A DNA stretch of 32,000 nt from Breznakia blatticola. GTDB lineage: Bacteria > Bacillota_I > Bacilli_A > Erysipelotrichales > Erysipelotrichaceae. The notes below the pieces were generated by a model, which did not search any database, was not told the origin of the DNA, and saw only the letters and a list, made by a program, of their open reading frames with translations. Below, in pieces: positions 1,908 to 15,473 of the stretch (its first letter is position 1; each line of letters starts with the position of its first letter). The stretch is from NCBI RefSeq assembly GCF_004365815.1, contig NZ_SODD01000025.1, positions 1,383 to 33,382 of the forward strand, in the 5' to 3' direction. Both the position numbers and the translations under genes were made by a program.

Positions 1908-2732
1908 ATGTTTAAAATTGGTGATTTTTCTAAGTTATCCAACCTGACAATTCGTGCTTTACACCATTATGAAGAACTGGGTATTCTAATACCTGATAAA
2001 ATTGATACAATGAGTAATTATCGTTACTACTCATCTAGTCAACTAGCAACTGCAAATCAAATCAAGATGTTGCAGCGAATTGGGTTATCTTTAAAATCTA
2101 TAAAAGAGATTATCGATGGTGATAATCCTGAAATACTAGAGAGTGGTTTGTTAGCAAGAGAGATGGAAATTCAAAATGAAATTGCAGAACTTAAAATCAA
2201 ACAGAATCTCATTGACATGTATAAAAAGACAATTCATGAAGGACGCTCTATTGCATCGTATCATGTGGAAATAAAAACAGTTCCAAAGCGTAATGTTATG
2301 TCGATAAGAAAATGTATTCCTTCCTATCAAGATGAAGCAGTTCTTTGGAATGCATTATATGAAAAATCGATCCAACAAAATGTGAAAATGGCAACTCCCT
2401 ACCAAGGTATGAGTATTTATCATGACAAAGAATACAAAGAAGAAAATGTTGATATTGAAGTTCAAAGCAATGTGGTTGGTATCTATGAAAACATAGATGA
2501 TGTAACATTCTATGAAACAAAGCCATTTGTGATGGCTTCCATTATCTTTCATGGTAGTTTTCAACAAATGGAAGAAGTCACGCAAGCACTTGCATCATGG
2601 ATTGAAGCAAATCATTATGTAATTGATGGACCAATGATTCAGATTCCTCACGTATCTCCAGCACAGGATGATAATCCAGAAAACTGGATAACCGAAGCAG
2701 GCTATGCAGTACGTTTACTAAATATAGAATAA
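1908..2732 (+). CDS. MerR-family transcriptional regulator with a C-terminal GyrI-like effector-binding domain (BmrR-like architecture)
   Basis: The N-terminus MFKIGDFSKLSNLTIRALHHYEELGILIP...YRYY is a MerR HTH. The ~150-aa C-terminal part resembles the GyrI-like/AraC-E-bind fold. GGAGG lies 7 nt before the ATG at 1908; the track start at 1893 falls inside this RBS region. Confidence 0.85.
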   Translation: MFKIGDFSKLSNLTIRALHHYEELGILIPDKIDTMSNYRYYSSSQLATANQIKMLQRIGLSLKSIKEIIDGDNPEILESGLLAREMEIQNEIAELKIKQNLIDMYKKTIHEGRSIASYHVEIKTVPKRNVMSIRKCIPSYQDEAVLWNALYEKSIQQNVKMATPYQGMSIYHDKEYKEENVDIEVQSNVVGIYENIDDVTFYETKPFVMASIIFHGSFQQMEEVTQALASWIEANHYVIDGPMIQIPHVSPAQDDNPENWITEAGYAVRLLNIE

Positions 2733-2742
2733 TTGTTAGATG

Positions 2743-2766
2743 GACACTCTATGTAGTGTCTTTTTT
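2743..2766 (+). terminator. Intrinsic terminator after the MerR gene
   Basis: Stem GACACT (2743-2748) / AGTGTC (2755-2760), followed by TTTTTT. Confidence 0.6.
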
Positions 2767-2771
2767 CAAAG

Positions 2772-2804
2772 AAAAAACGCCTACTTGTATGTAGACGTCT
2801 TTTT
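2772..2804. terminator. Bidirectional hairpin terminator downstream of the glycyl-radical domain gene
   Basis: Stem ACGCCTAC (2777-2784) / GTAGACGT (2791-2798) with one mismatch, flanked by an A-run on one side and a T-run on the other. Confidence 0.5.
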
Positions 2805-2819
2805 AATAAATCTTTTGAA

Positions 2820-3053
2820 TTACATCCCTTCGTGCATTGTACGGTGGATAACATCATCTTGTTGTTCTTTTGACAACTTGTTGAAGTTTACCGCATATCC
2901 AGATACACGAATTGTAAGTTGTGGATATTTTTCTGGGTGTGCTTGTGCATCTAATAATGTTTCACGATCAAATACGTTTACATTTAAATGGTGTCCACCA
3001 CTTTGTGCATATCCATCAATCATTGTTACTAAGTTTTCTGCTTTATTGTTCAT
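2820..3053 (-). CDS. Free-standing glycyl-radical domain protein (GrcA/YfiD-like). It corresponds to the detached C-terminus of pyruvate formate-lyase.
   Basis: 77 aa: [28 protein letters not shown]...[27 protein letters not shown]. The RVSGYAV radical motif is present. AGGAAG lies 8 nt before the ATG at 3051-3053; the GTG start in the track (3062) overlaps that RBS. Confidence 0.85.
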
Positions 3054-3076
3054 TTTCGCCACTTCCTATCTATTTT

Positions 3077-5083
3077 TTAGTCTTCGTCTTTTCCTAGCGC
3101 GTCAGGTACAATTGAGAACGTGTTAGAAATTCCATCACGTGAATATTCATATGGTAATTTTGCAACTGATTCAAGTGAAGCTACCGCACCATGTGTATCA
3201 CGTCCGTGCATTGGGTTAGCCCCTGGTGCAAAAGGTTCTCCAGCTTTACGTCCATCAGGCGTATTTCCTGTTTTCTTACCATAAACAACGTTTGAAGTAA
3301 TCGTTAAGATACTCATTGAAGGTACACCATGACGGTATGTACGGTGTTCTTTAATCATATTCATAAACGTTTTTACTAAGTCAGCTGCAATGCGGTCAAC
3401 ACGGTCATCGTTGTTTCCATATTTAGGGAAATCACCTTCGATTTCGTAGTCTACTGCAATACCATCTTCATCACGAATTGGTTTAACTTTTGCATATTTA
3501 ATTGCTGATAATGAGTCAGCAACAACTGATAATCCTGCAATACCTGTCGCAAAGAAACGACGAACATCATGATCATGTAATGACATTTCTAATGCTTCGT
3601 ATGAGTATTTATCGTGCATGTAGTGAATTACGTTTAATGTATTTACGTAAAGTCCAGCTAACCATGACATCATTTGTTGGTATTTTTGCATAACTTCTTC
3701 ATAGTCTAAGTATTCTGAAGTAATTGGTTCCATTCTTGGTGAAACTTGGATTTTTTTCTTTTCATCAACCCCACCGTTAATTGCGTAAAGTAGACATTTT
3801 GCAAGGTTTGCTCTTGCTCCAAAGAATTGCATATCTTTACCAACACGCATACAAGATACACAACATGCAATTGCATAGTCATCACCCATTTCAATGCGCA
3901 TCAAGTCATCATTTTCATATTGAATTGAACTTGTTTCAATTGAGATTTTCGCACAGAAACGTTTGAAGTTGTGTGGTAATCTTGTTGACCAAAGAACGGT
4001 TAAGTTTGGTTCTGGTGCTGGTCCTAAGTTTACAAGTGTATGTAAGAATCTAAATGAGTTCTTTGTTACTAAAGAACGACCATCAAGAGACATCCCACCA
4101 ATACTTTCTGTTACCCAAGTTGGGTCTCCAGAGAATAATTCATTGTATTCAGGAGTACGCATGAATTTAACTAAACGTAACTTCATAATGAAGTGGTCAA
4201 TCATTTCTTGCGCTTCTTCTTCTGTAATTTTTCCAACTTCTAGATCTCTTTGAATGTAGATATCTAAGAATGTAGAAGTACGTCCTAATGACATTGCAGC
4301 ACCATTTTGGTCTTTAACAGCTGCTAAGTATCCAAAGTAAACTGCTTGAATCGCTTCTTGTGCAGTTACTGATGGTTGTGAAATATCGATTCCGTAAATT
4401 AATGCCATTTCTTTAAGTGCGATCAATGCACGAATTTGTTCACTTACTTCTTCACGATCACGAATTCTTTCTTCAGTCATTGAACCAAGAAGAACTGTGT
4501 TTAATAAGTTTTGTTTGTCTTCAATTAAGAAGTCTACACCGTATAGGGCAATACGACGGTAGTCACCAATGATACGACCACGTCCATATGCATCAGGAAG
4601 ACCTGTGATGATTCCACAAGTACGTGCACGACGCATTTCTGGAGTATATGCATCAAAAACACCTTGGTTGTGTGTTTTACGGTATTTTGAAAATACTTCT
4701 TTAATTTCTGGATCTAATTCATATCCATATGCTTGTAAAGCTGTTTCACTCATACGAATACCACCAAATGGTTGTAATGAACGTTTGAATGGTTTATCTG
4801 TTTGGAACCCAACGATTTTTTCTAAATCTTTGTTTAGGTATCCAGCACCATGACTTGTTAATGAAGATACGATTTTTGTATCTGCATCTAACACACCACC
4901 AGCAGCAGCTTCTTGTTTATTTAATTCTGTAACTTGATCCCATAATGCTTTTGTTCCATCTGTAGGATCTGCTAAGAAACTTTCGTCTCCTTCGTATTCT
5001 GTATAGTTACGTTGAATGAAATCACGAACGTTAATTTCGTCTGTCCAGTTTCCTAAATTAAAACCTTCCCAACCTTTGTACAT
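3077..5083 (-). CDS. pflB: Pyruvate formate-lyase (formate C-acetyltransferase) body that lacks the glycyl-radical domain
   Basis: 668 aa collinear with PflB. The active-site IACCVS Cys-Cys pair is present. The protein ends at [12 protein letters not shown], just before the point where the radical domain begins in intact PFLs. RBS AAGGTGAGG. Confidence 0.9.
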
Positions 5084-5262
5084 TTGTTTACCTCACCTTC
5101 TTAAGGGACAATTCCCTTATCATTTCGATGTTTGCAGTATAGCATAATCGTATATACTTGTCACACTTTATATAACATCCTATATATTAACATTCCACCA
5201 AATATAATATTTTAAACCATATATAAAACTTTGTAATTTATATACCCTAATATAAGTATTAT

Positions 5263-5595
5263 TTAGTGCATGGCTTTTGCTTTATATTCTTCCATTTTTG
5301 ATTCAATATAAATCTCTAAGATTTCCTCAGGTTGGTACCCTTGTACTTTACTAATTAATTCATCTCTAAATAAAAATAGAATCGTTGGTACTTGTTGTAC
5401 CTTATAGTATGTATTTATATCTTTGTTTTGTTCGCTTGCATCTACAATATATACTTGTAGATTCTCAAACTTCTTACCGACATTTTGAATAATGGGTGAC
5501 ATTGTTGTACAGTTTGCACAACCACCTCCACCAATTAACACCAAAGAAAATTCATTCTTTGCAAATTCATTTCTAAAATTCTCATTTGTTAGCAT
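5263..5595 (-). CDS. Thioredoxin-fold protein (CxxC = CANC)
   Basis: 110 aa with GGGGCANC and a VPT cis-Pro-type loop (QQVPTILF). AGGAG lies 9 nt before the ATG. The start overlaps the pflA stop by 14 nt. Confidence 0.7.
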   Translation of the reverse strand: MLTNENFRNEFAKNEFSLVLIGGGGCANCTTMSPIIQNVGKKFENLQVYIVDASEQNKDINTYYKVQQVPTILFLFRDELISKVQGYQPEEILEIYIESKMEEYKAKAMH

Positions 5596-6337
5596 GTGAT
5601 TTTACTCCTAAGATTTCTTTTGTTCTATCAATAACTTCTTTACTTGGTTTTTGTACACCTTCAAGAGGATATGGAATATTTAAGTTCTGATATTTTGCAA
5701 TTCCCATTGTGTGGTATGGTAATACTTCAATTTTTTCAATATTACGATACCTACTTAAATATGTATGGAGTGCTTCTATATCGTGTTCATCATCACTGTA
5801 TCCTGGAACGAGTACATAACGAATCCATACAGACTTGTTATGATCTGCAAGATATTGCATGAAATCTTGAGGATTTTTATTTTCTTTTCCAGTTAATGCT
5901 TTATGTTTCACTGGATCAATGTGTTTAACATCAAGTAAAAATAAATCCGTTACTTCCAACAATGCATCAAATTTAGCAAGTGTAGCAGCACTGTTTTTTA
6001 CAAATGTAATTCCACTCGTATCAACGGCTGTATGTAATCCTTGAGCTTTTAAACGTTTCAACAATTCAGTTACAAACTCGATTTGCACTAGTGGTTCTCC
6101 ACCACTGATAGTAACTCCACCCTTCTTGATGTAGTTTTTATATTTCATGATTTGATTGAATACATCATCTACGCTGTATACATCACCACCACTGCCTATT
6201 TTCCATGTATCTGGATTATGACAATACAAGCAACGCATTGGACAACCTTGCATAAATACAACAAAGCGAATGCCTGGTCCATCTACAGTTCCAAAGCTTT
6301 CAAATGAATGAATTCTCCCTAATAATTGCTCACTCAA
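5582..6337 (-). CDS. pflA: Pyruvate formate-lyase activating enzyme (radical SAM)
   Basis: GRIHSFESFGTVDGPGIRFVVFMQGCPMRCLYCHNPDTW contains the CxxxCxxC cluster and the PflA N-terminal signature. TTG start with an AAAGAGGTG RBS. Confidence 0.92.
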   Translation of the reverse strand: MSEQLLGRIHSFESFGTVDGPGIRFVVFMQGCPMRCLYCHNPDTWKIGSGGDVYSVDDVFNQIMKYKNYIKKGGVTISGGEPLVQIEFVTELLKRLKAQGLHTAVDTSGITFVKNSAATLAKFDALLEVTDLFLLDVKHIDPVKHKALTGKENKNPQDFMQYLADHNKSVWIRYVLVPGYSDDEHDIEALHTYLSRYRNIEKIEVLPYHTMGIAKYQNLNIPYPLEGVQKPSKEVIDRTKEILGVKSHANK

Positions 6338-6538
6338 CTACATCACCTCTTTACACATGCATTATAGCACAATAAAAAATTAGCTTAATCAATTTGCCCC
6401 TATATACTATAACGAAATTTTCTTCTCCTTATGCGGAAATCTATATAGTGTTATTGTACTTGAAATTTACAATAAAGAAAGTGCTATTTTCACAATTAGA
6501 GGTTTGCCTTTTTTGGTATTGCAATTTATACTTGATAT

Positions 6539-7048
6539 ATGATGAAACAAGTACTTGACGCAAATGGTATGCGTCGCTCACTTATACGAATCACACATGA
6601 AATTCTTGAACACAATAAAGGTGTAGATCAAATCGTTTTAGTTGGTATTGAAACACGCGGTATCGACTTAGCTAAGCGAATCCAAACAAACCTTGAAACC
6701 TTCGAAAACAAAAAGGTAGAGTGTTATGGAATTAACGTCTATCCTTGGCGTGATGATGTAAAAGATGAAGCAAAGCCAGAAATTAATTTACCCATCAATG
6801 ATAAGAAGGTAATTCTTGTTGATGATGTACTATTTAAAGGTCGAACAGTTCGTGCCGCAATGGATGCTTTAATGGCTAATGCACGCCCAAAAGAAATCCA
6901 ACTTGCTGTACTTATCGATCGAGGACATCGTGAGCTTCCCATTCGTGCAGATTATGTTGGGAAAAATATTCCAAGTTCTATCGATGAAATTATCCGCGTA
7001 AAAGTAGAAGAACAAGATGGTAACGATGAAGTCGTTATCGAAAAATAA
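6539..7048 (+). CDS. pyrR: Bifunctional pyrimidine regulatory protein / uracil phosphoribosyltransferase
   Basis: The PRPP-binding loop VILVDDVLFKGRTVRAA and the string DRGHRELPIRADYVGKNIPSS are typical of PyrR. Confidence 0.88.
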   Translation: MMKQVLDANGMRRSLIRITHEILEHNKGVDQIVLVGIETRGIDLAKRIQTNLETFENKKVECYGINVYPWRDDVKDEAKPEINLPINDKKVILVDDVLFKGRTVRAAMDALMANARPKEIQLAVLIDRGHRELPIRADYVGKNIPSSIDEIIRVKVEEQDGNDEVVIEK

Positions 7049-11356: not shown

Positions 11357-14098
11357 TTATTTTGATTTTCTTTTATTACGTAAAACAACCATTCCACCTG
11401 TCAATGCGATCAATCCAAGGTAAATAAACCATTCAACACTTGTCGAATCACCTGTATCTACGACTTTATTTGCATCTTTTACTTGCCCATTGAAATCTGG
11501 TGCAATGGATGGATTTGAAGGATTGCTTGGCGAATCTGTATTTGTCTCATTATTAACTGGTGGAAGTACAATTTTTTCCCACTTCGCAACTAATGTTACA
11601 TCATTATAAATTAAGGTATCAAAATCCCAGCTTTGTCCATCAGAAAGTTCCCATCCTTTAAAAATATATCCATCTCTTTCTGGGTCTAACGGTTTTGTTG
11701 ATGTATTTCCATATTCAACTTTTTGTGAATCAATTGGATCACTAGTTCCACCATTCAAATCAAAGATGATGTCAAACTTCGCTATTTCCCAAATATATGT
11801 ATCTGGAATACTTCCATCGTAGCTATCCATAAATGTTGTACTATCTGCATATGTATTTCCAGTATGAATACCAATCCAACGACCTGTGTATTTTCCACTT
11901 GTCGTATCAATTAATGGCAATGCAGCACTCTGATCAAGTATGGCATTAGGTCCCAATTGTATAGAACTAAGAAGTGTACAATTGTAAAACATTTGCACAA
12001 AATCCGTTACATTTGATGTATCCCAATTTTCTAAATTAATTTTCTCTAAACTTTGATTTTCATAGAACATACGTTGCATATTTACTACATTACTTGTATC
12101 CCAATTGGATAAGTCTAATTCCGTAATTGAAGGGCATAGATCAAACATATTTGACATATTAGTCACATTTGCTGTATTCCAATTCGCAATTTCTAAACCA
12201 TCCAATACGGCGCAGTCATGGAACATAAATGACATATCCATAACACTTGATGTATCCCAGTCTTTCATATCTAGTGTTTCAAGTGCACTACATCCTAAGA
12301 ACATACTTCCCATGGTTGTAACATTTTCTACATTCCAATCGCTAACATCTAGGTTATTGATATTCTTACTTCTAAAAAACATTAAGTCCATTGCTGTAAC
12401 ACTTCCAGTATCCCAATTACTTACATCAAGTGATTCCAAGCTTTCGCAAGCATAAAACATACTCGACATATCTGTAACATTTTCTACGTTCCAATCTGAA
12501 ACATTAAGATCTGTTAATACTTTACAATTAACAAACATCCCACTCATATCTGTTACAACACCAACATTCCAATCATCGACTGATAATCCAGTGAGTTTGT
12601 TGCAACCATAGAACATTTGTTTCATGCTTTCCACTTTTTCTGTATTCCATGTACTTACATCAAGGTTGTCTAAAATCGTACATCCATAAAACATGCTACG
12701 CATATTTTCTACAAGTCCGACATTCCATTCTTCAACATCTAACACCTCAAGATTCGCACATCCTGAAAACATACTACTCATGTCTTTTACTGCAGCTACA
12801 TTCCAAGTACTAACATCAACATCTGAAAGTTTCGTACATCCCGAGAACATAAATGCCATCGTATTTACATTCCCTACATTCCAATCACTTACAGCAATTT
12901 CTTCCAATTTCTTACAGTTCCAAAACATGTAACTCATATCTTGAATATTATGCACATCCCAATTATCAATTGTTAATGTTGTTAGTGCTTCACAATCTGT
13001 AAACATGCTTTTTGTTGATAATGTTTTTGATAAATCCCAACCTGAAAGATCAATGCTTGTTAATTTTGTACTACTTCTAAACATATTCTCTAGTGTTTTA
13101 ACACTTGATGTTTCCCAATCAGATAAATCTAAATTTTCTAATTTCGTACAATATCTAAACATGTTTTCCATTGTTTCAACTTTACGCACATCAAAAGATT
13201 CAACGTTAATTTCTTCCAGTGCAAAACATTGGTCAAACATGAATTTCATATCTTTAACTTCACCAGTATCCCAAGTATCTACCTTTAATTCAGTGATTAT
13301 TTTACATCCTTTAAACATTGATGACATATTTGTCACAGCACTTGTGTCCCAATCTTCTACATCAATTTCTGCAAGTACTGAACAACCATCAAACATTCCC
13401 ATCATTAAGGTTACATTTTCTGTATCCCATAATGATACATCGACATTTGTTAATGCAGAACATCCTTTAAACATGTATGACATATCTGTAAAAGTTGATG
13501 TGTTCCATGATGATACATCAATACTTGTTAGTGAACTACATCCCTCAAACATACTTTGCGCGTTAACTGGTCCTGAAAACGTAATCTTCTCTGCACCAAC
13601 CACAGTTTCTAAACTTGTGAATTTTTCAAACATACTTGCTGCATTTGTAATTGTCACTGGTTGTGCAAATGTAATCTTCTTAATTTGATTTTTGTGTTGA
13701 ACAAAGTTATTAGGATTTGCCCAATGTTCTCCAGTCAATACACCTTGTTGGTAACTTTTGTTTCCACATGTATTCGTTAGTGTACCACCTTCTAGCACGA
13801 GTTCTCCATCTGCATACAACGTCCAAGTTACACCCCACGTGTTTGTATCAACAACTACACGATCTGCTTGTGGCAAAATCTCTACAGTTTTTGCACTTGG
13901 TTTTGTCTCATCCTTAATTTCTGTTTGCTCATCTACACGCTTAACAACTTCATCTTCCTTATTAGCTGTTTCTTCGTTTACCTCATCAGTAGTTTGCTCA
14001 TTTGCATGTATTTCTTCTTTTGCTAGTACAATACCGTTTGATGAAACTACAATAATTCCAATCAACATCAAAATTACTATCTTTTTTAATTTATCCAT
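11357..14098 (-). CDS. BspA-family (DUF285-type) leucine-rich-repeat surface protein with a Listeria-Bacteroides (Flg_new) repeat and a C-terminal membrane/sorting anchor
   Basis: The protein has a signal peptide (MDKLKKIVILMLIGIIVVSSNGIVLA) and about 22 units of DVSxWNTSxVTxMxxMFxGCxxL. It also has a GYIFKGW Flg_new module, a Pro/Ser linker, and the tail VVDTGDSTSVEWFIYLGLIALTGGMVVLRNKRKSK. Confidence 0.88.
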   Translation of the reverse strand: MDKLKKIVILMLIGIIVVSSNGIVLAKEEIHANEQTTDEVNEETANKEDEVVKRVDEQTEIKDETKPSAKTVEILPQADRVVVDTNTWGVTWTLYADGELVLEGGTLTNTCGNKSYQQGVLTGEHWANPNNFVQHKNQIKKITFAQPVTITNAASMFEKFTSLETVVGAEKITFSGPVNAQSMFEGCSSLTSIDVSSWNTSTFTDMSYMFKGCSALTNVDVSLWDTENVTLMMGMFDGCSVLAEIDVEDWDTSAVTNMSSMFKGCKIITELKVDTWDTGEVKDMKFMFDQCFALEEINVESFDVRKVETMENMFRYCTKLENLDLSDWETSSVKTLENMFRSSTKLTSIDLSGWDLSKTLSTKSMFTDCEALTTLTIDNWDVHNIQDMSYMFWNCKKLEEIAVSDWNVGNVNTMAFMFSGCTKLSDVDVSTWNVAAVKDMSSMFSGCANLEVLDVEEWNVGLVENMRSMFYGCTILDNLDVSTWNTEKVESMKQMFYGCNKLTGLSVDDWNVGVVTDMSGMFVNCKVLTDLNVSDWNVENVTDMSSMFYACESLESLDVSNWDTGSVTAMDLMFFRSKNINNLDVSDWNVENVTTMGSMFLGCSALETLDMKDWDTSSVMDMSFMFHDCAVLDGLEIANWNTANVTNMSNMFDLCPSITELDLSNWDTSNVVNMQRMFYENQSLEKINLENWDTSNVTDFVQMFYNCTLLSSIQLGPNAILDQSAALPLIDTTSGKYTGRWIGIHTGNTYADSTTFMDSYDGSIPDTYIWEIAKFDIIFDLNGGTSDPIDSQKVEYGNTSTKPLDPERDGYIFKGWELSDGQSWDFDTLIYNDVTLVAKWEKIVLPPVNNETNTDSPSNPSNPSIAPDFNGQVKDANKVVDTGDSTSVEWFIYLGLIALTGGMVVLRNKRKSK
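11960..13680 (-). repeat. Tandem array of about 22 diverged 75-nt (25-aa) LRR coding repeats
   Basis: Periodic xMF-x-x-C-x-x-L ... W(D/N)(T/V) pattern in the translation. This periodicity also generates long spurious antisense ORFs in the track. Confidence 0.85.
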
Positions 14099-14128
14099 AC
14101 TTTTTCCTCTCTATAACACTTGCTATTT

Positions 14129-14160
14129 GTTAGATATTCAAAATACAAAATAGTTTGAAC
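14129..14160 (-). promoter_or_regulatory. ECF-type promoter candidate in front of the BspA-like gene
   Basis: Read on the minus strand: GTTCAAAC-N15-ATATCTAAC, ending about 30 nt before the ATG. The same 8+9 nt at the same spacing occur at 15513-15544. Confidence 0.55.
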
Positions 14161-15473
14161 TAAATTGTAAAACTGAATTCATTACAATGTTTTTTCATAT
14201 CACACAACATCACTTCAATTTTCTTGTCCTGATTTAGTGATACATACAACTCTTTTGTTAGTGGAACTTTGCTTCCATTTACAATCACATATGACAAATC
14301 ATAGTTAATGTCATATTCCGCTTCTTGAACGATGAAATATCCAACATCATCTTTTACTTTGATTCCCTTTATAACAGGAATTTTTTGATCAATATTATCT
14401 ACTTCAAAATATTGCTCATCATTTCCTACTTTCACATAATACCTTCCATTATCATTCGCATACATTTGAATATATTCATCAAATATTGTGTATGCACAGT
14501 TTTCATCTTGAAATGTAATTTGAACTGCATCAGTTACCTTTTCTTTTGTATAAATACGTATTTCAATTGGTCCGGCAATTGGTGACTGATCATACGCAAT
14601 CGATGCAATCGTATCCTCTCGATTTGAAACTTTGTATACTGGATGACTCGTAATTGACGGATATACATCATAAAGCAAATCATGATCTTGTAATATTCCA
14701 AAGGCTTGTGGAAATATCATCACTGCTGCAAGGAAAACCGTGAATAATACTCCACTTTTCTCACTTCTTATCATCGCATTCACAAAATCACGTATACTTC
14801 CATGTCGAATCGATTGCTCATTACTACCAATCGATGGATGTGTTTGCTCTTTTGCTTGATACCTATTTGTCATTTCTTGATACAACAATGGAATCCCTGT
14901 CACACTGAAGTATTTTCTAGGATGATATCCTTGATCTTTCAAATCCTTCGATACCTTCTTACGAATTTCATACAATCTACTTTTTACCTTTTTTGTGTCT
15001 ACATCCATTTCACTCGCAATTTCATCCATTGAAAATCCACCTAAGAATCGCAATTCTGCAGTTCTTTTATTGTTTTGATTCAACTTTGAAAATGACTGAA
15101 TGATTGCATCCATTAAGGAAGAACGCGTTAATTCATCAATTTGATTATCTTTTGCTTCTACTACCTCTTCGATTGCATTTTCATCATCTAACTGAATATA
15201 CTTATTTTGCTTATTTAATCTTGCATTACACTCATTTGTTGCAATCGTGAACATCCATGAATGAAATGCATCAAGTTTCTTTAATTGATGAATCTTCATT
15301 TGTACTTTAAGCATCACTTCCTGAACGACTTCCTCTGCTTCATGTGCATTTTTCAAAATTGAAAATGCATAATAATAAAGAGGTCCACGATAAAACTTAT
15401 AAATTTCATTTAATGCATTTGCATTTCCTTCTTGTAGTTCCTTTACATATGCATTAGATATTCGGCTTGCCAC
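14160..15473 (-). CDS. ECF-type sigma-70 family factor fused to a transmembrane helix and a ~176-aa extracytoplasmic domain
   Basis: aa 1-185 contain sigma region 2 (EAEEVVQEVMLKV...FHSWMFTIATNECNARL) and region 4 (RTAELRFLGGFSMDEIASEMDVDTKKVKSRLYEIRKK). A TM helix spans aa 241-261 (GVLFTVFLAAVMIFPQAFGIL), with basic residues on the N-terminal side. The C-terminal domain has no family I can recognise. GTG start. Confidence 0.8.
   Translation of the reverse strand: MASRISNAYVKELQEGNANALNEIYKFYRGPLYYYAFSILKNAHEAEEVVQEVMLKVQMKIHQLKKLDAFHSWMFTIATNECNARLNKQNKYIQLDDENAIEEVVEAKDNQIDELTRSSLMDAIIQSFSKLNQNNKRTAELRFLGGFSMDEIASEMDVDTKKVKSRLYEIRKKVSKDLKDQGYHPRKYFSVTGIPLLYQEMTNRYQAKEQTHPSIGSNEQSIRHGSIRDFVNAMIRSEKSGVLFTVFLAAVMIFPQAFGILQDHDLLYDVYPSITSHPVYKVSNREDTIASIAYDQSPIAGPIEIRIYTKEKVTDAVQITFQDENCAYTIFDEYIQMYANDNGRYYVKVGNDEQYFEVDNIDQKIPVIKGIKVKDDVGYFIVQEAEYDINYDLSYVIVNGSKVPLTKELYVSLNQDKKIEVMLCDMKKHCNEFSFTI

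Follow-up and report, generated by a model that had tools for sequence, protein, structure and literature searches.

Does the pyruvate formate-lyase (PFL) locus of Breznakia blatticola represent a broken gene, or an enzyme that is made in two pieces? PFL is the archetypal glycyl radical enzyme. On the stretch of 32,000 nt that we analysed (contig NZ_SODD01000025.1, positions 1,383 to 33,382; in the following, the window), the catalytic body and the C-terminal segment with the radical glycine are found in two neighbouring open reading frames (ORFs) of 668 and 77 amino acids (aa). An initial interpretation made from the letters alone (the sequence-only reading) had proposed a deliberate two-cistron design. 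This proposal is now well supported by an identical junction in independent assemblies, by split relatives and by purifying selection. As judged from profiles and comparative evidence, the locus probably encodes an obligate two-subunit, naturally split PFL that is activated by the adjacent PflA. Coordinates without a locus identifier are those of the window, and all of its features described below lie on the minus strand.

The two pieces and their junction

By its profile matches, the body (3077..5083; 75.3 kDa, without the glycyl-radical segment) is unambiguously a pyruvate formate-lyase. It matches Pfam PFL-like with E=3.7e-217, scores 1141.7 bits against TIGR01255 (cutoff 994.2), of which it covers model positions 2-664 of 744, and aligns with residues 10-678 of E. 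coli PflB (1H16). The catalytic pair Cys407-Cys408 of the IACCVS motif (codons at 3860..3865), corresponding by alignment to C418/C419 of E. coli, is invariant among body homologues, as are most columns of the catalytic core. The RVSGYAV motif is not part of this polypeptide: the body ends at TIGR01255 position 664, and the motif is encoded on the 77-aa ORF, in another frame.

This small ORF (2820..3053) encodes a GrcA3-like glycyl-radical subunit of 8.8 kDa, which takes up TIGR01255 at positions 665-744 and aligns with residues 683-758 of E. coli PFL. The two products are exact complements on this model, with no overlap and no loss, and by profile they are one PFL chain in two exactly complementary pieces. 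Coordinates and TIGR01255/Pfam matches agree in this respect with the sequence-only reading, which had described a 668-aa body with the IACCVS pair next to a separate 77-aa ORF. Its statement that the small ORF holds the complete radical domain stands in the GrcA/YfiD sense, i.e. helix, strand, Gly loop and C-terminal helix are present. It does not stand in terms of Pfam Gly_radical, of which the small ORF matches positions 50-106 of 106, while the first ~50 model positions remain in the body (residues 618-667).

The cut point is a variable linker equivalent to residues ~679-683 of E. coli PFL. The two cistrons are separated by a spacer of 23 nt (3054..3076), which follows the TAA stop of the body (3079-3077) and contains a TAG at 3072-3070 and another one at 3068-3066; these three stops are in three different frames, so that every frame is closed between body and small ORF. 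A Shine-Dalgarno (SD) sequence, AGGAAG (3067-3062), is positioned 8 nt ahead of the ATG of the small ORF at 3053, and the junction RNA is unstructured in RNA fold predictions (0 kcal/mol). The gap, its stops and the SD site had been part of the initial interpretation, and all were borne out. In the ORF list the small ORF is longer, starting with a GTG at 3062 and encoding 80 aa. As this GTG overlaps the SD sequence and the homologues mostly have 77 aa with an equivalent ATG start, we consider 77 aa to be correct.

The predicted radical site of the small protein is Gly52 in the RVSGYAV loop (codon at 2898..2900), which by alignment is equivalent to G734 of E. coli and is invariant in all 26 aligned homologues. 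Most of the best 120 matches of this protein are free-standing as well, with lengths of 75-83 aa. According to the family models, the 77-aa protein is neither GrcA nor GrcA2: it reaches 95.8 bits against TIGR04365 (GrcA/YfiD, spare_glycyl; cutoff 170), with only model positions 64-125 aligned, and 98.2 bits against NF008341 (GrcA2; cutoff 145). Its best family is NF038360 (GrcA3), matched along model positions 3-78 of 78 with 153.7 bits (cutoff 158); small proteins at the equivalent position of other split loci score above this cutoff (159.4-171.4 bits), and hence the small-protein family is already catalogued by NCBI. The N-terminus is a PFL-type helix (equivalent to E. coli 683-697), which according to the alignment is absent from phage and enterobacterial GrcA-type proteins; 1585 phage records align to residues 19-77 only. 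No second radical-domain gene was found in the 32-kb window.

In an AlphaFold2 (AF2) model of the lone small protein, residues 27-74 have predicted local distance difference test (pLDDT) values of 78-87, and residues 1-26 are below 50. The model consists of a helix, two strands (47-50 and 53-56) flanking G52 at the tip of a hairpin, and a helix at 62-75. Its core can be superimposed by Foldseek on the nuclear magnetic resonance structure of YfiD (template modelling score 0.72) and on the C-terminus of E. coli PFL (root-mean-square deviation 0.7-0.8 Å). As modelled, the small protein has the glycyl-radical domain fold, that is, a hairpin with the glycine at its tip and, after it, a C-terminal helix. 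Two homologues with internal tandem duplications of PFL sequence, one of the Gly-loop region (P0001, 111 aa) and one of residues ~115-240 (P0189, 805 aa), are probably metagenome assembly artefacts.

Conservation of the split

The exact 668-aa protein is present on 10 contigs, and a 61-nt segment spanning the junction is base-identical to the window in assemblies from SRR8436184, SRR24755480 and SRR24755482, i.e. from three independent sequencing runs. By sequence, the two proteins match those of B. blatticola (Erysipelotrichaceae) with 100% identity. To relatives we had access through a scan of one genome per species, which gave at least 585 of them; the best 80 loci were examined for split versus fused genes. 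In 77 of these 80 loci, all from other species, the small-gene frame is closed just upstream, and instead of a return to one ORF we found the break in one and the same linker, between ...LGKD(D/E) and ...(D/E)NLV, with the SD sequence kept. Only three loci (L035, L038 and L040) are fused. Split loci occur in Bacillota (Erysipelotrichaceae, Christensenellaceae, Blautia, Dorea, Ruminococcus, Lachnoclostridium, Amygdalobacter, Anaeroplasma and Acholeplasmatales), in Actinomycetota (Collinsella, Lancefieldella rimae, Atopobiaceae and Coriobacteriaceae) and in Melainabacteria. Consistent lengths are also seen at the protein level: of the best 120 homologues of the body (79-100% identity), 115 have 658-673 aa; they come from Breznakia, Traorella and other Erysipelotrichaceae, from Anaeroplasmataceae, from a Clostridiaceae isolate and from Amygdalobacter. 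A search of a representative library with the body was uninformative on split versus fused genes, as PFLs of at least 50% identity fall into one cluster there.

The spacer measures 23 nt in the window, and in the two relatives closest to it 20 and 15 nt, with an SD sequence in each. Elsewhere it ranges from 1 nt to more than 100 nt, and all three relative frames are found; only the SD sequence is kept. Variable length and frame together with a retained SD sequence are what one would expect of two independently translated cistrons. A programmed frameshift or read-through is ruled out by the stops in all three frames and by the unconserved length and frame of the spacer, which bears out the early statement that no single-base frameshift is involved. 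In some type-A loci (see below; L008, L011, L020, L027 and L028), a spacer of 80-130 nt holds G+C-rich inverted repeats that possibly form a hairpin; the 23-nt spacer of the window has none.

Both genes are under strong purifying selection. Between the window and its closest relative, L081, the ratio of nonsynonymous to synonymous substitution rates (dN/dS) is 0.041 for the body and 0.024 for the small gene (dS 0.47 and 0.23, respectively), and over 13 family pairs it ranges from 0.005 to 0.12 for the body and from 0.009 to 0.13 for the small gene. Pairwise divergences of body and small protein across 58 loci are correlated (Mantel r=0.70; 0 of 2000 permutations as high), and by this measure the two are inherited as a unit.

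Gene neighbourhood and split architectures

In the window, the body is preceded by two genes, so that the order is pflA, a thioredoxin-fold gene, body and radical subunit. The pflA gene (5582..6337; 251 aa) encodes the PFL-activating radical S-adenosylmethionine enzyme (TIGR02493, 323.5 bits, cutoff 231.75; matches also to Pfam Radical_SAM and Fer4_12). Its end is overlapped by the thioredoxin-fold gene (5263..5595; 110 aa), whose product has a C-A-N-C motif (Pfam Thioredoxin, E=1.5e-11) and which we tentatively regard as part of the split-PFL system. An intergenic region follows ahead of the body. Here we predict a promoter-like element with an extended TG (GTGACA-17-TATACT; 5136..5164), the best consensus match of the region (10/12). 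Just 3' of the small ORF lies an intrinsic-terminator-like hairpin with a U-run (2772..2802), with a predicted folding energy of -15.8 kcal/mol (z=-5.25; none of 200 shuffles as stable). Judging from these predicted signals, body and small gene appear to be co-transcribed from the promoter-like site (5164-5136) to the terminator (2802-2772). The putative 5' leader contains an 18-nt palindrome (TAAGGGAATTGTCCCTTA, 5102-5119) just before the ribosome-binding site of the body. Its fold is only slightly more stable than those of shuffled sequences (z=-1.87), and the palindrome might serve as an operator or form a small hairpin. An Rfam search of 2500-6700 matched no family.

The split loci fall into three architectures, introduced here as types A, B and C. 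In type A, to which the window belongs, the body ends 2-6 residues after ...LG, and both the thioredoxin-like gene and pflA are upstream; example lineages are Erysipelotrichaceae, Christensenellaceae, Anaeroplasma and Amygdalobacter. The order pflA, thioredoxin-like gene, body, radical subunit was found in 24 of the 25 type-A loci in which the body is complete and the sequence extends far enough upstream. The thioredoxin-like gene between pflA and body (~110 aa; e.g. in L003, L005, L007, L008, L013 and L061) encodes proteins that share the motifs SGE(S/G)CANC and GYQPEEILE(L/I)W. It was seen neither in the type-B and type-C loci examined nor in the fused relatives L038 and L040. Its distribution was read from the fetched loci, the homologue search having given six matches through a word index.

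Type B has a body with an acidic Cys-rich tail (e.g. ...DCACCEPN...), no extra element and pflA downstream; examples are Blautia, Collinsella, Lancefieldella, Atopobiaceae and Melainabacteria. Type C (e.g. Ruminococcus, Lachnoclostridium and metagenome-assembled genomes (MAGs) of Lachnospiraceae) combines an acidic body tail with a third ORF of ~50-76 aa, and pflA is downstream where the fetched locus reaches that far. Cys-rich acidic tails followed by a separate radical subunit, ending for instance in ...DCACCEPNLSVDEAE or ...DPGCCQANLN, were found in Blautia, Dorea, Collinsella, Lancefieldella, Atopobiaceae and Melainabacteria (L010, L019, L022, L024, L029, L034, L039, L041, L044, L050, L051, L057, L059, L070 and L074). 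The third ORF lies between body and radical subunit (L015, at 3687-3985, L037, L043, L048, L054, L063, L067, L068, L072, L076, L078 and L079). The N-terminus of its product resembles helix and strand of the radical subunit (IDDIIAMLDGF...GGHMNIEV), and at the C-terminus a Cys...Cys-x-(V/I)-P-(T/N) motif stands where the Gly loop would be; no Pfam or NCBIfam family matched it.

A second, unlinked paralogue of the radical subunit (77-78 aa) is encoded in B. pachnodae, Breznakia sp. PF5-3, Erysipelotrichaceae MTC7 and a MAG (L006 2898-3131; L083/L084 5001-5234; L085/L086 5001-5237; L001 4001-4234). Three DegV genes directly precede it in L006 and L083-L086; its distance from Fur/PerR-like and rubrerythrin genes is 1-2 kb in B. 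pachnodae and MTC7. We may speculate that the thioredoxin-like gene, the Cys-rich tail or third ORF and the unlinked copies point to a handling of the radical subunit that is based on thiols or linked to stress. In Breznakia sp. PF5-3, the unlinked paralogue is directly followed by a sigma factor gene (in the region L006 3283-5800). A similar gene is present in the window, where 11357-15473 encodes a 437-aa sigma-70/extracytoplasmic function-like protein with a long C-terminal extension and then a 913-aa surface-type protein of the DUF285/leucine-rich repeat kind.

Fused full-length PFLs were found near the split ones: L038 (1970-4228), L040 (1086-3371), P0190 and L091 (3869-6181). In a neighbour-joining tree, L038 and L040 fall inside the clade of type A and P0190 stands beside the group of the window. 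P0190 appears more divergent in its C-terminal third and is possibly a chimera. L091 is a fused PFL of the Lachnospiraceae type on a bacterial-looking contig filed as 'Bacteriophage sp.'. An AF2 model of P0190, obtained with a shallow alignment, has a mean pLDDT of 51.6 and is not reliable; it gives no more than a weak indication of a coil at the fission point (664-666), ahead of a helix. A joint MAFFT alignment of bodies and small proteins with P0190 was discarded, as the short sequences were misaligned.

Mechanism, alternatives and relation to known systems

According to our proposal, an ancestral pflB would have undergone fission in the linker between the catalytic barrel and the C-terminal glycyl-radical segment, where ~20 nt with a stop codon, an SD site and an ATG would now have the two cistrons translated separately. 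The 75-kDa body would provide, by homology, the ten-stranded barrel and the Cys407/Cys408 loop, and the 8.8-kDa subunit would contribute the Gly52 loop together with a helix, a strand and the C-terminal helix. PflA, whose gene is the second one upstream of the body, would take the hydrogen of Gly52 on the free or loosely bound subunit, which would then dock in the body, its N-terminal helix and strand folding on the latter, and the Gly52 radical would generate the cysteine thiyl radical for pyruvate cleavage. Since it is at the radical glycine that oxygen cuts the chain, only the small subunit would be lost to damage, and a new 8.8-kDa subunit would replace the one cleaved at Gly52. Assembly, activation in trans and exchange after damage are inferred steps of this scheme. 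That a free radical segment, YfiD, can be activated and complement PFL in trans has been reported for E. coli (PMC8683613). Several points weigh against the obligate two-subunit enzyme, or at least against an advantage of the split. Binding of YfiD was not detectable with an engineered E. coli PFL truncated at residue 695 (PMC8683613), so assembly of a body cut near 679 is not a given; promoter and co-transcription are predictions; and with fused relatives (L038, L040 and P0190) nested among the split ones, the fission may be nearly neutral rather than adaptive.

How do other explanations compare? Apart from the interruption of the gene itself, nothing speaks for an error of sequencing or assembly or for a pseudogene that arose recently from an intact pflB; we see practically no chance for this explanation, as it is refuted by the identical junction in independent runs, by stops closing all three frames, by the same split in 77 of 80 loci and by dN/dS values far below 1 for both parts. 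It is also most improbable that a full-length PFL encoded elsewhere uses the 77-aa protein as a usual spare part of the GrcA type, with the body being a remnant or having another role. The NCBI family name, 'autonomous glycyl radical cofactor GrcA3', would fit such a function. However, the body is strongly selected, with its Cys pair and most of the catalytic-core columns invariant, and in essentially every locus it is adjacent to the small protein, with which it co-evolves; furthermore, the PFL-type helix, missing from YfiD and the phage homologues, is present in the small protein, whose scores for GrcA and GrcA2 are far under the respective cutoffs.

A less remote alternative, which we nevertheless consider unlikely, is that the split enzyme works and the fission is essentially neutral: the halves would assemble with no advantage in repair or economy and without subunit exchange. 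It is favoured by the fused PFLs L038 and L040 inside type A, P0190 next to the group of the window and the one of L091, as fused forms within or beside split clades suggest that the two states interconvert easily; moreover, an insertion of only ~20 nt in a variable linker is needed. On the other hand, the split state is kept across very divergent lineages, which have conserved their specific accessories (thioredoxin-like gene, Cys-rich tail or third ORF), and relatives in Breznakia hold the second, unlinked radical subunit by Fur/PerR and rubrerythrin genes. Going further, one could envisage split PFLs as a distinct, widespread class of glycyl radical enzymes, with a freely exchangeable radical subunit that is activated off the enzyme, a dedicated thiol partner for docking, quenching or repair (the C-A-N-C thioredoxin-like protein here, the Cys-rich tail or mini-protein in other lineages) and unlinked copies as an oxidative-stress reserve. 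This broader reading is doubtful at present. An obligate two-subunit PFL activated by PflA is our preferred interpretation of the locus.

Two questions on PFL are how the buried radical segment exits from the barrel to reach the activase and how oxygen damage is repaired. A natural enzyme with the radical segment as a separate 8.8-kDa protein would make both directly testable. The proposed enzyme also differs from the situation in E. coli, where the engineered truncated PFL showed no detectable binding of YfiD. The split architecture is found in many gut and vaginal anaerobes, such as Blautia, Dorea, Collinsella, Lancefieldella and Amygdalobacter, and therefore bears on formate production in these habitats and on PFL as a drug target. 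The PFL of Amygdalobacter has been detected in vivo, and A. nucleatus is listed among formate producers whose growth is reduced by the PFL inhibitor hypophosphite (PMC12208373); as the Amygdalobacter locus (L061) has the same architecture as the window, this is indirect evidence for a split PFL that converts pyruvate and CoA to acetyl-CoA and formate. In genomes with split loci, the annotations 'formate C-acetyltransferase' and 'GrcA' are best read as one two-subunit enzyme.

The split PFL is real and widespread, known from annotation and structure deposits and undescribed in the searchable literature. It is less novel than the sequence-only reading had assumed, given that the arrangement is common, GrcA3 is catalogued and truncated bodies are in the PDB. 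Our literature searches found no paper with the name GrcA3 and none on a natural split PFL; according to a 2021 paper in the Journal of Biological Chemistry, only YfiD and Y06I had been validated so far, and a 2026 review of glycyl radical enzymes covers only the YfiD-type spare part. The name given to NF038360 implies such a spare part and not an obligate subunit of a truncated PFL. Two PDB entries of 2026, both termed 'Formate acetyltransferase', are by sequence naturally truncated bodies of split loci. Entry 38LA consists of a tag and a 666-aa body that ends with ...SLGKE, is ~80% identical to the body of the window and is nearly identical to that of Amygdalobacter. Entry 38LB, a tag plus a body of ~718 aa with a C-terminal extension, is closest to the body of L019 and appears to represent the kind with a Cys-rich tail. 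Neither entry contains a small radical-bearing chain, and we found no associated publication.

The nearest characterized relatives of the 77-aa protein are E. coli GrcA/YfiD and Y06I of phage T4, which like it are free-standing homologues of the PFL C-terminus with an RVSGYAV loop; they are activated by the PFL-activating enzyme and can give the radical to a PFL without a working radical segment (PMC8683613, PMC13450708). YfiD differs in having 127 aa with a disordered N-terminus of 60 residues, where the shorter 77-aa protein has the PFL-type helix. The YfiD gene is unlinked to pflB, whereas the small gene of the window lies 23 nt downstream of the body. Also, YfiD rescues full-length PFL cleaved by oxygen, whereas the body of the window never has a radical segment. 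Compared with E. coli PflB (1H16), Cys pair and radical glycine are conserved, although two polypeptides take the place of one. The gene order is different as well: pflA comes after pflB in E. coli, but together with the thioredoxin-like gene it stands ahead of the body in the window. A large catalytic subunit with small subunits is likewise found in benzylsuccinate synthase (alpha-beta-gamma) and 4-hydroxyphenylacetate decarboxylase. In these enzymes the small subunits are accessory and the radical glycine resides on the large subunit, whereas in the split PFL it is the small subunit itself that is predicted to bear the radical glycine.

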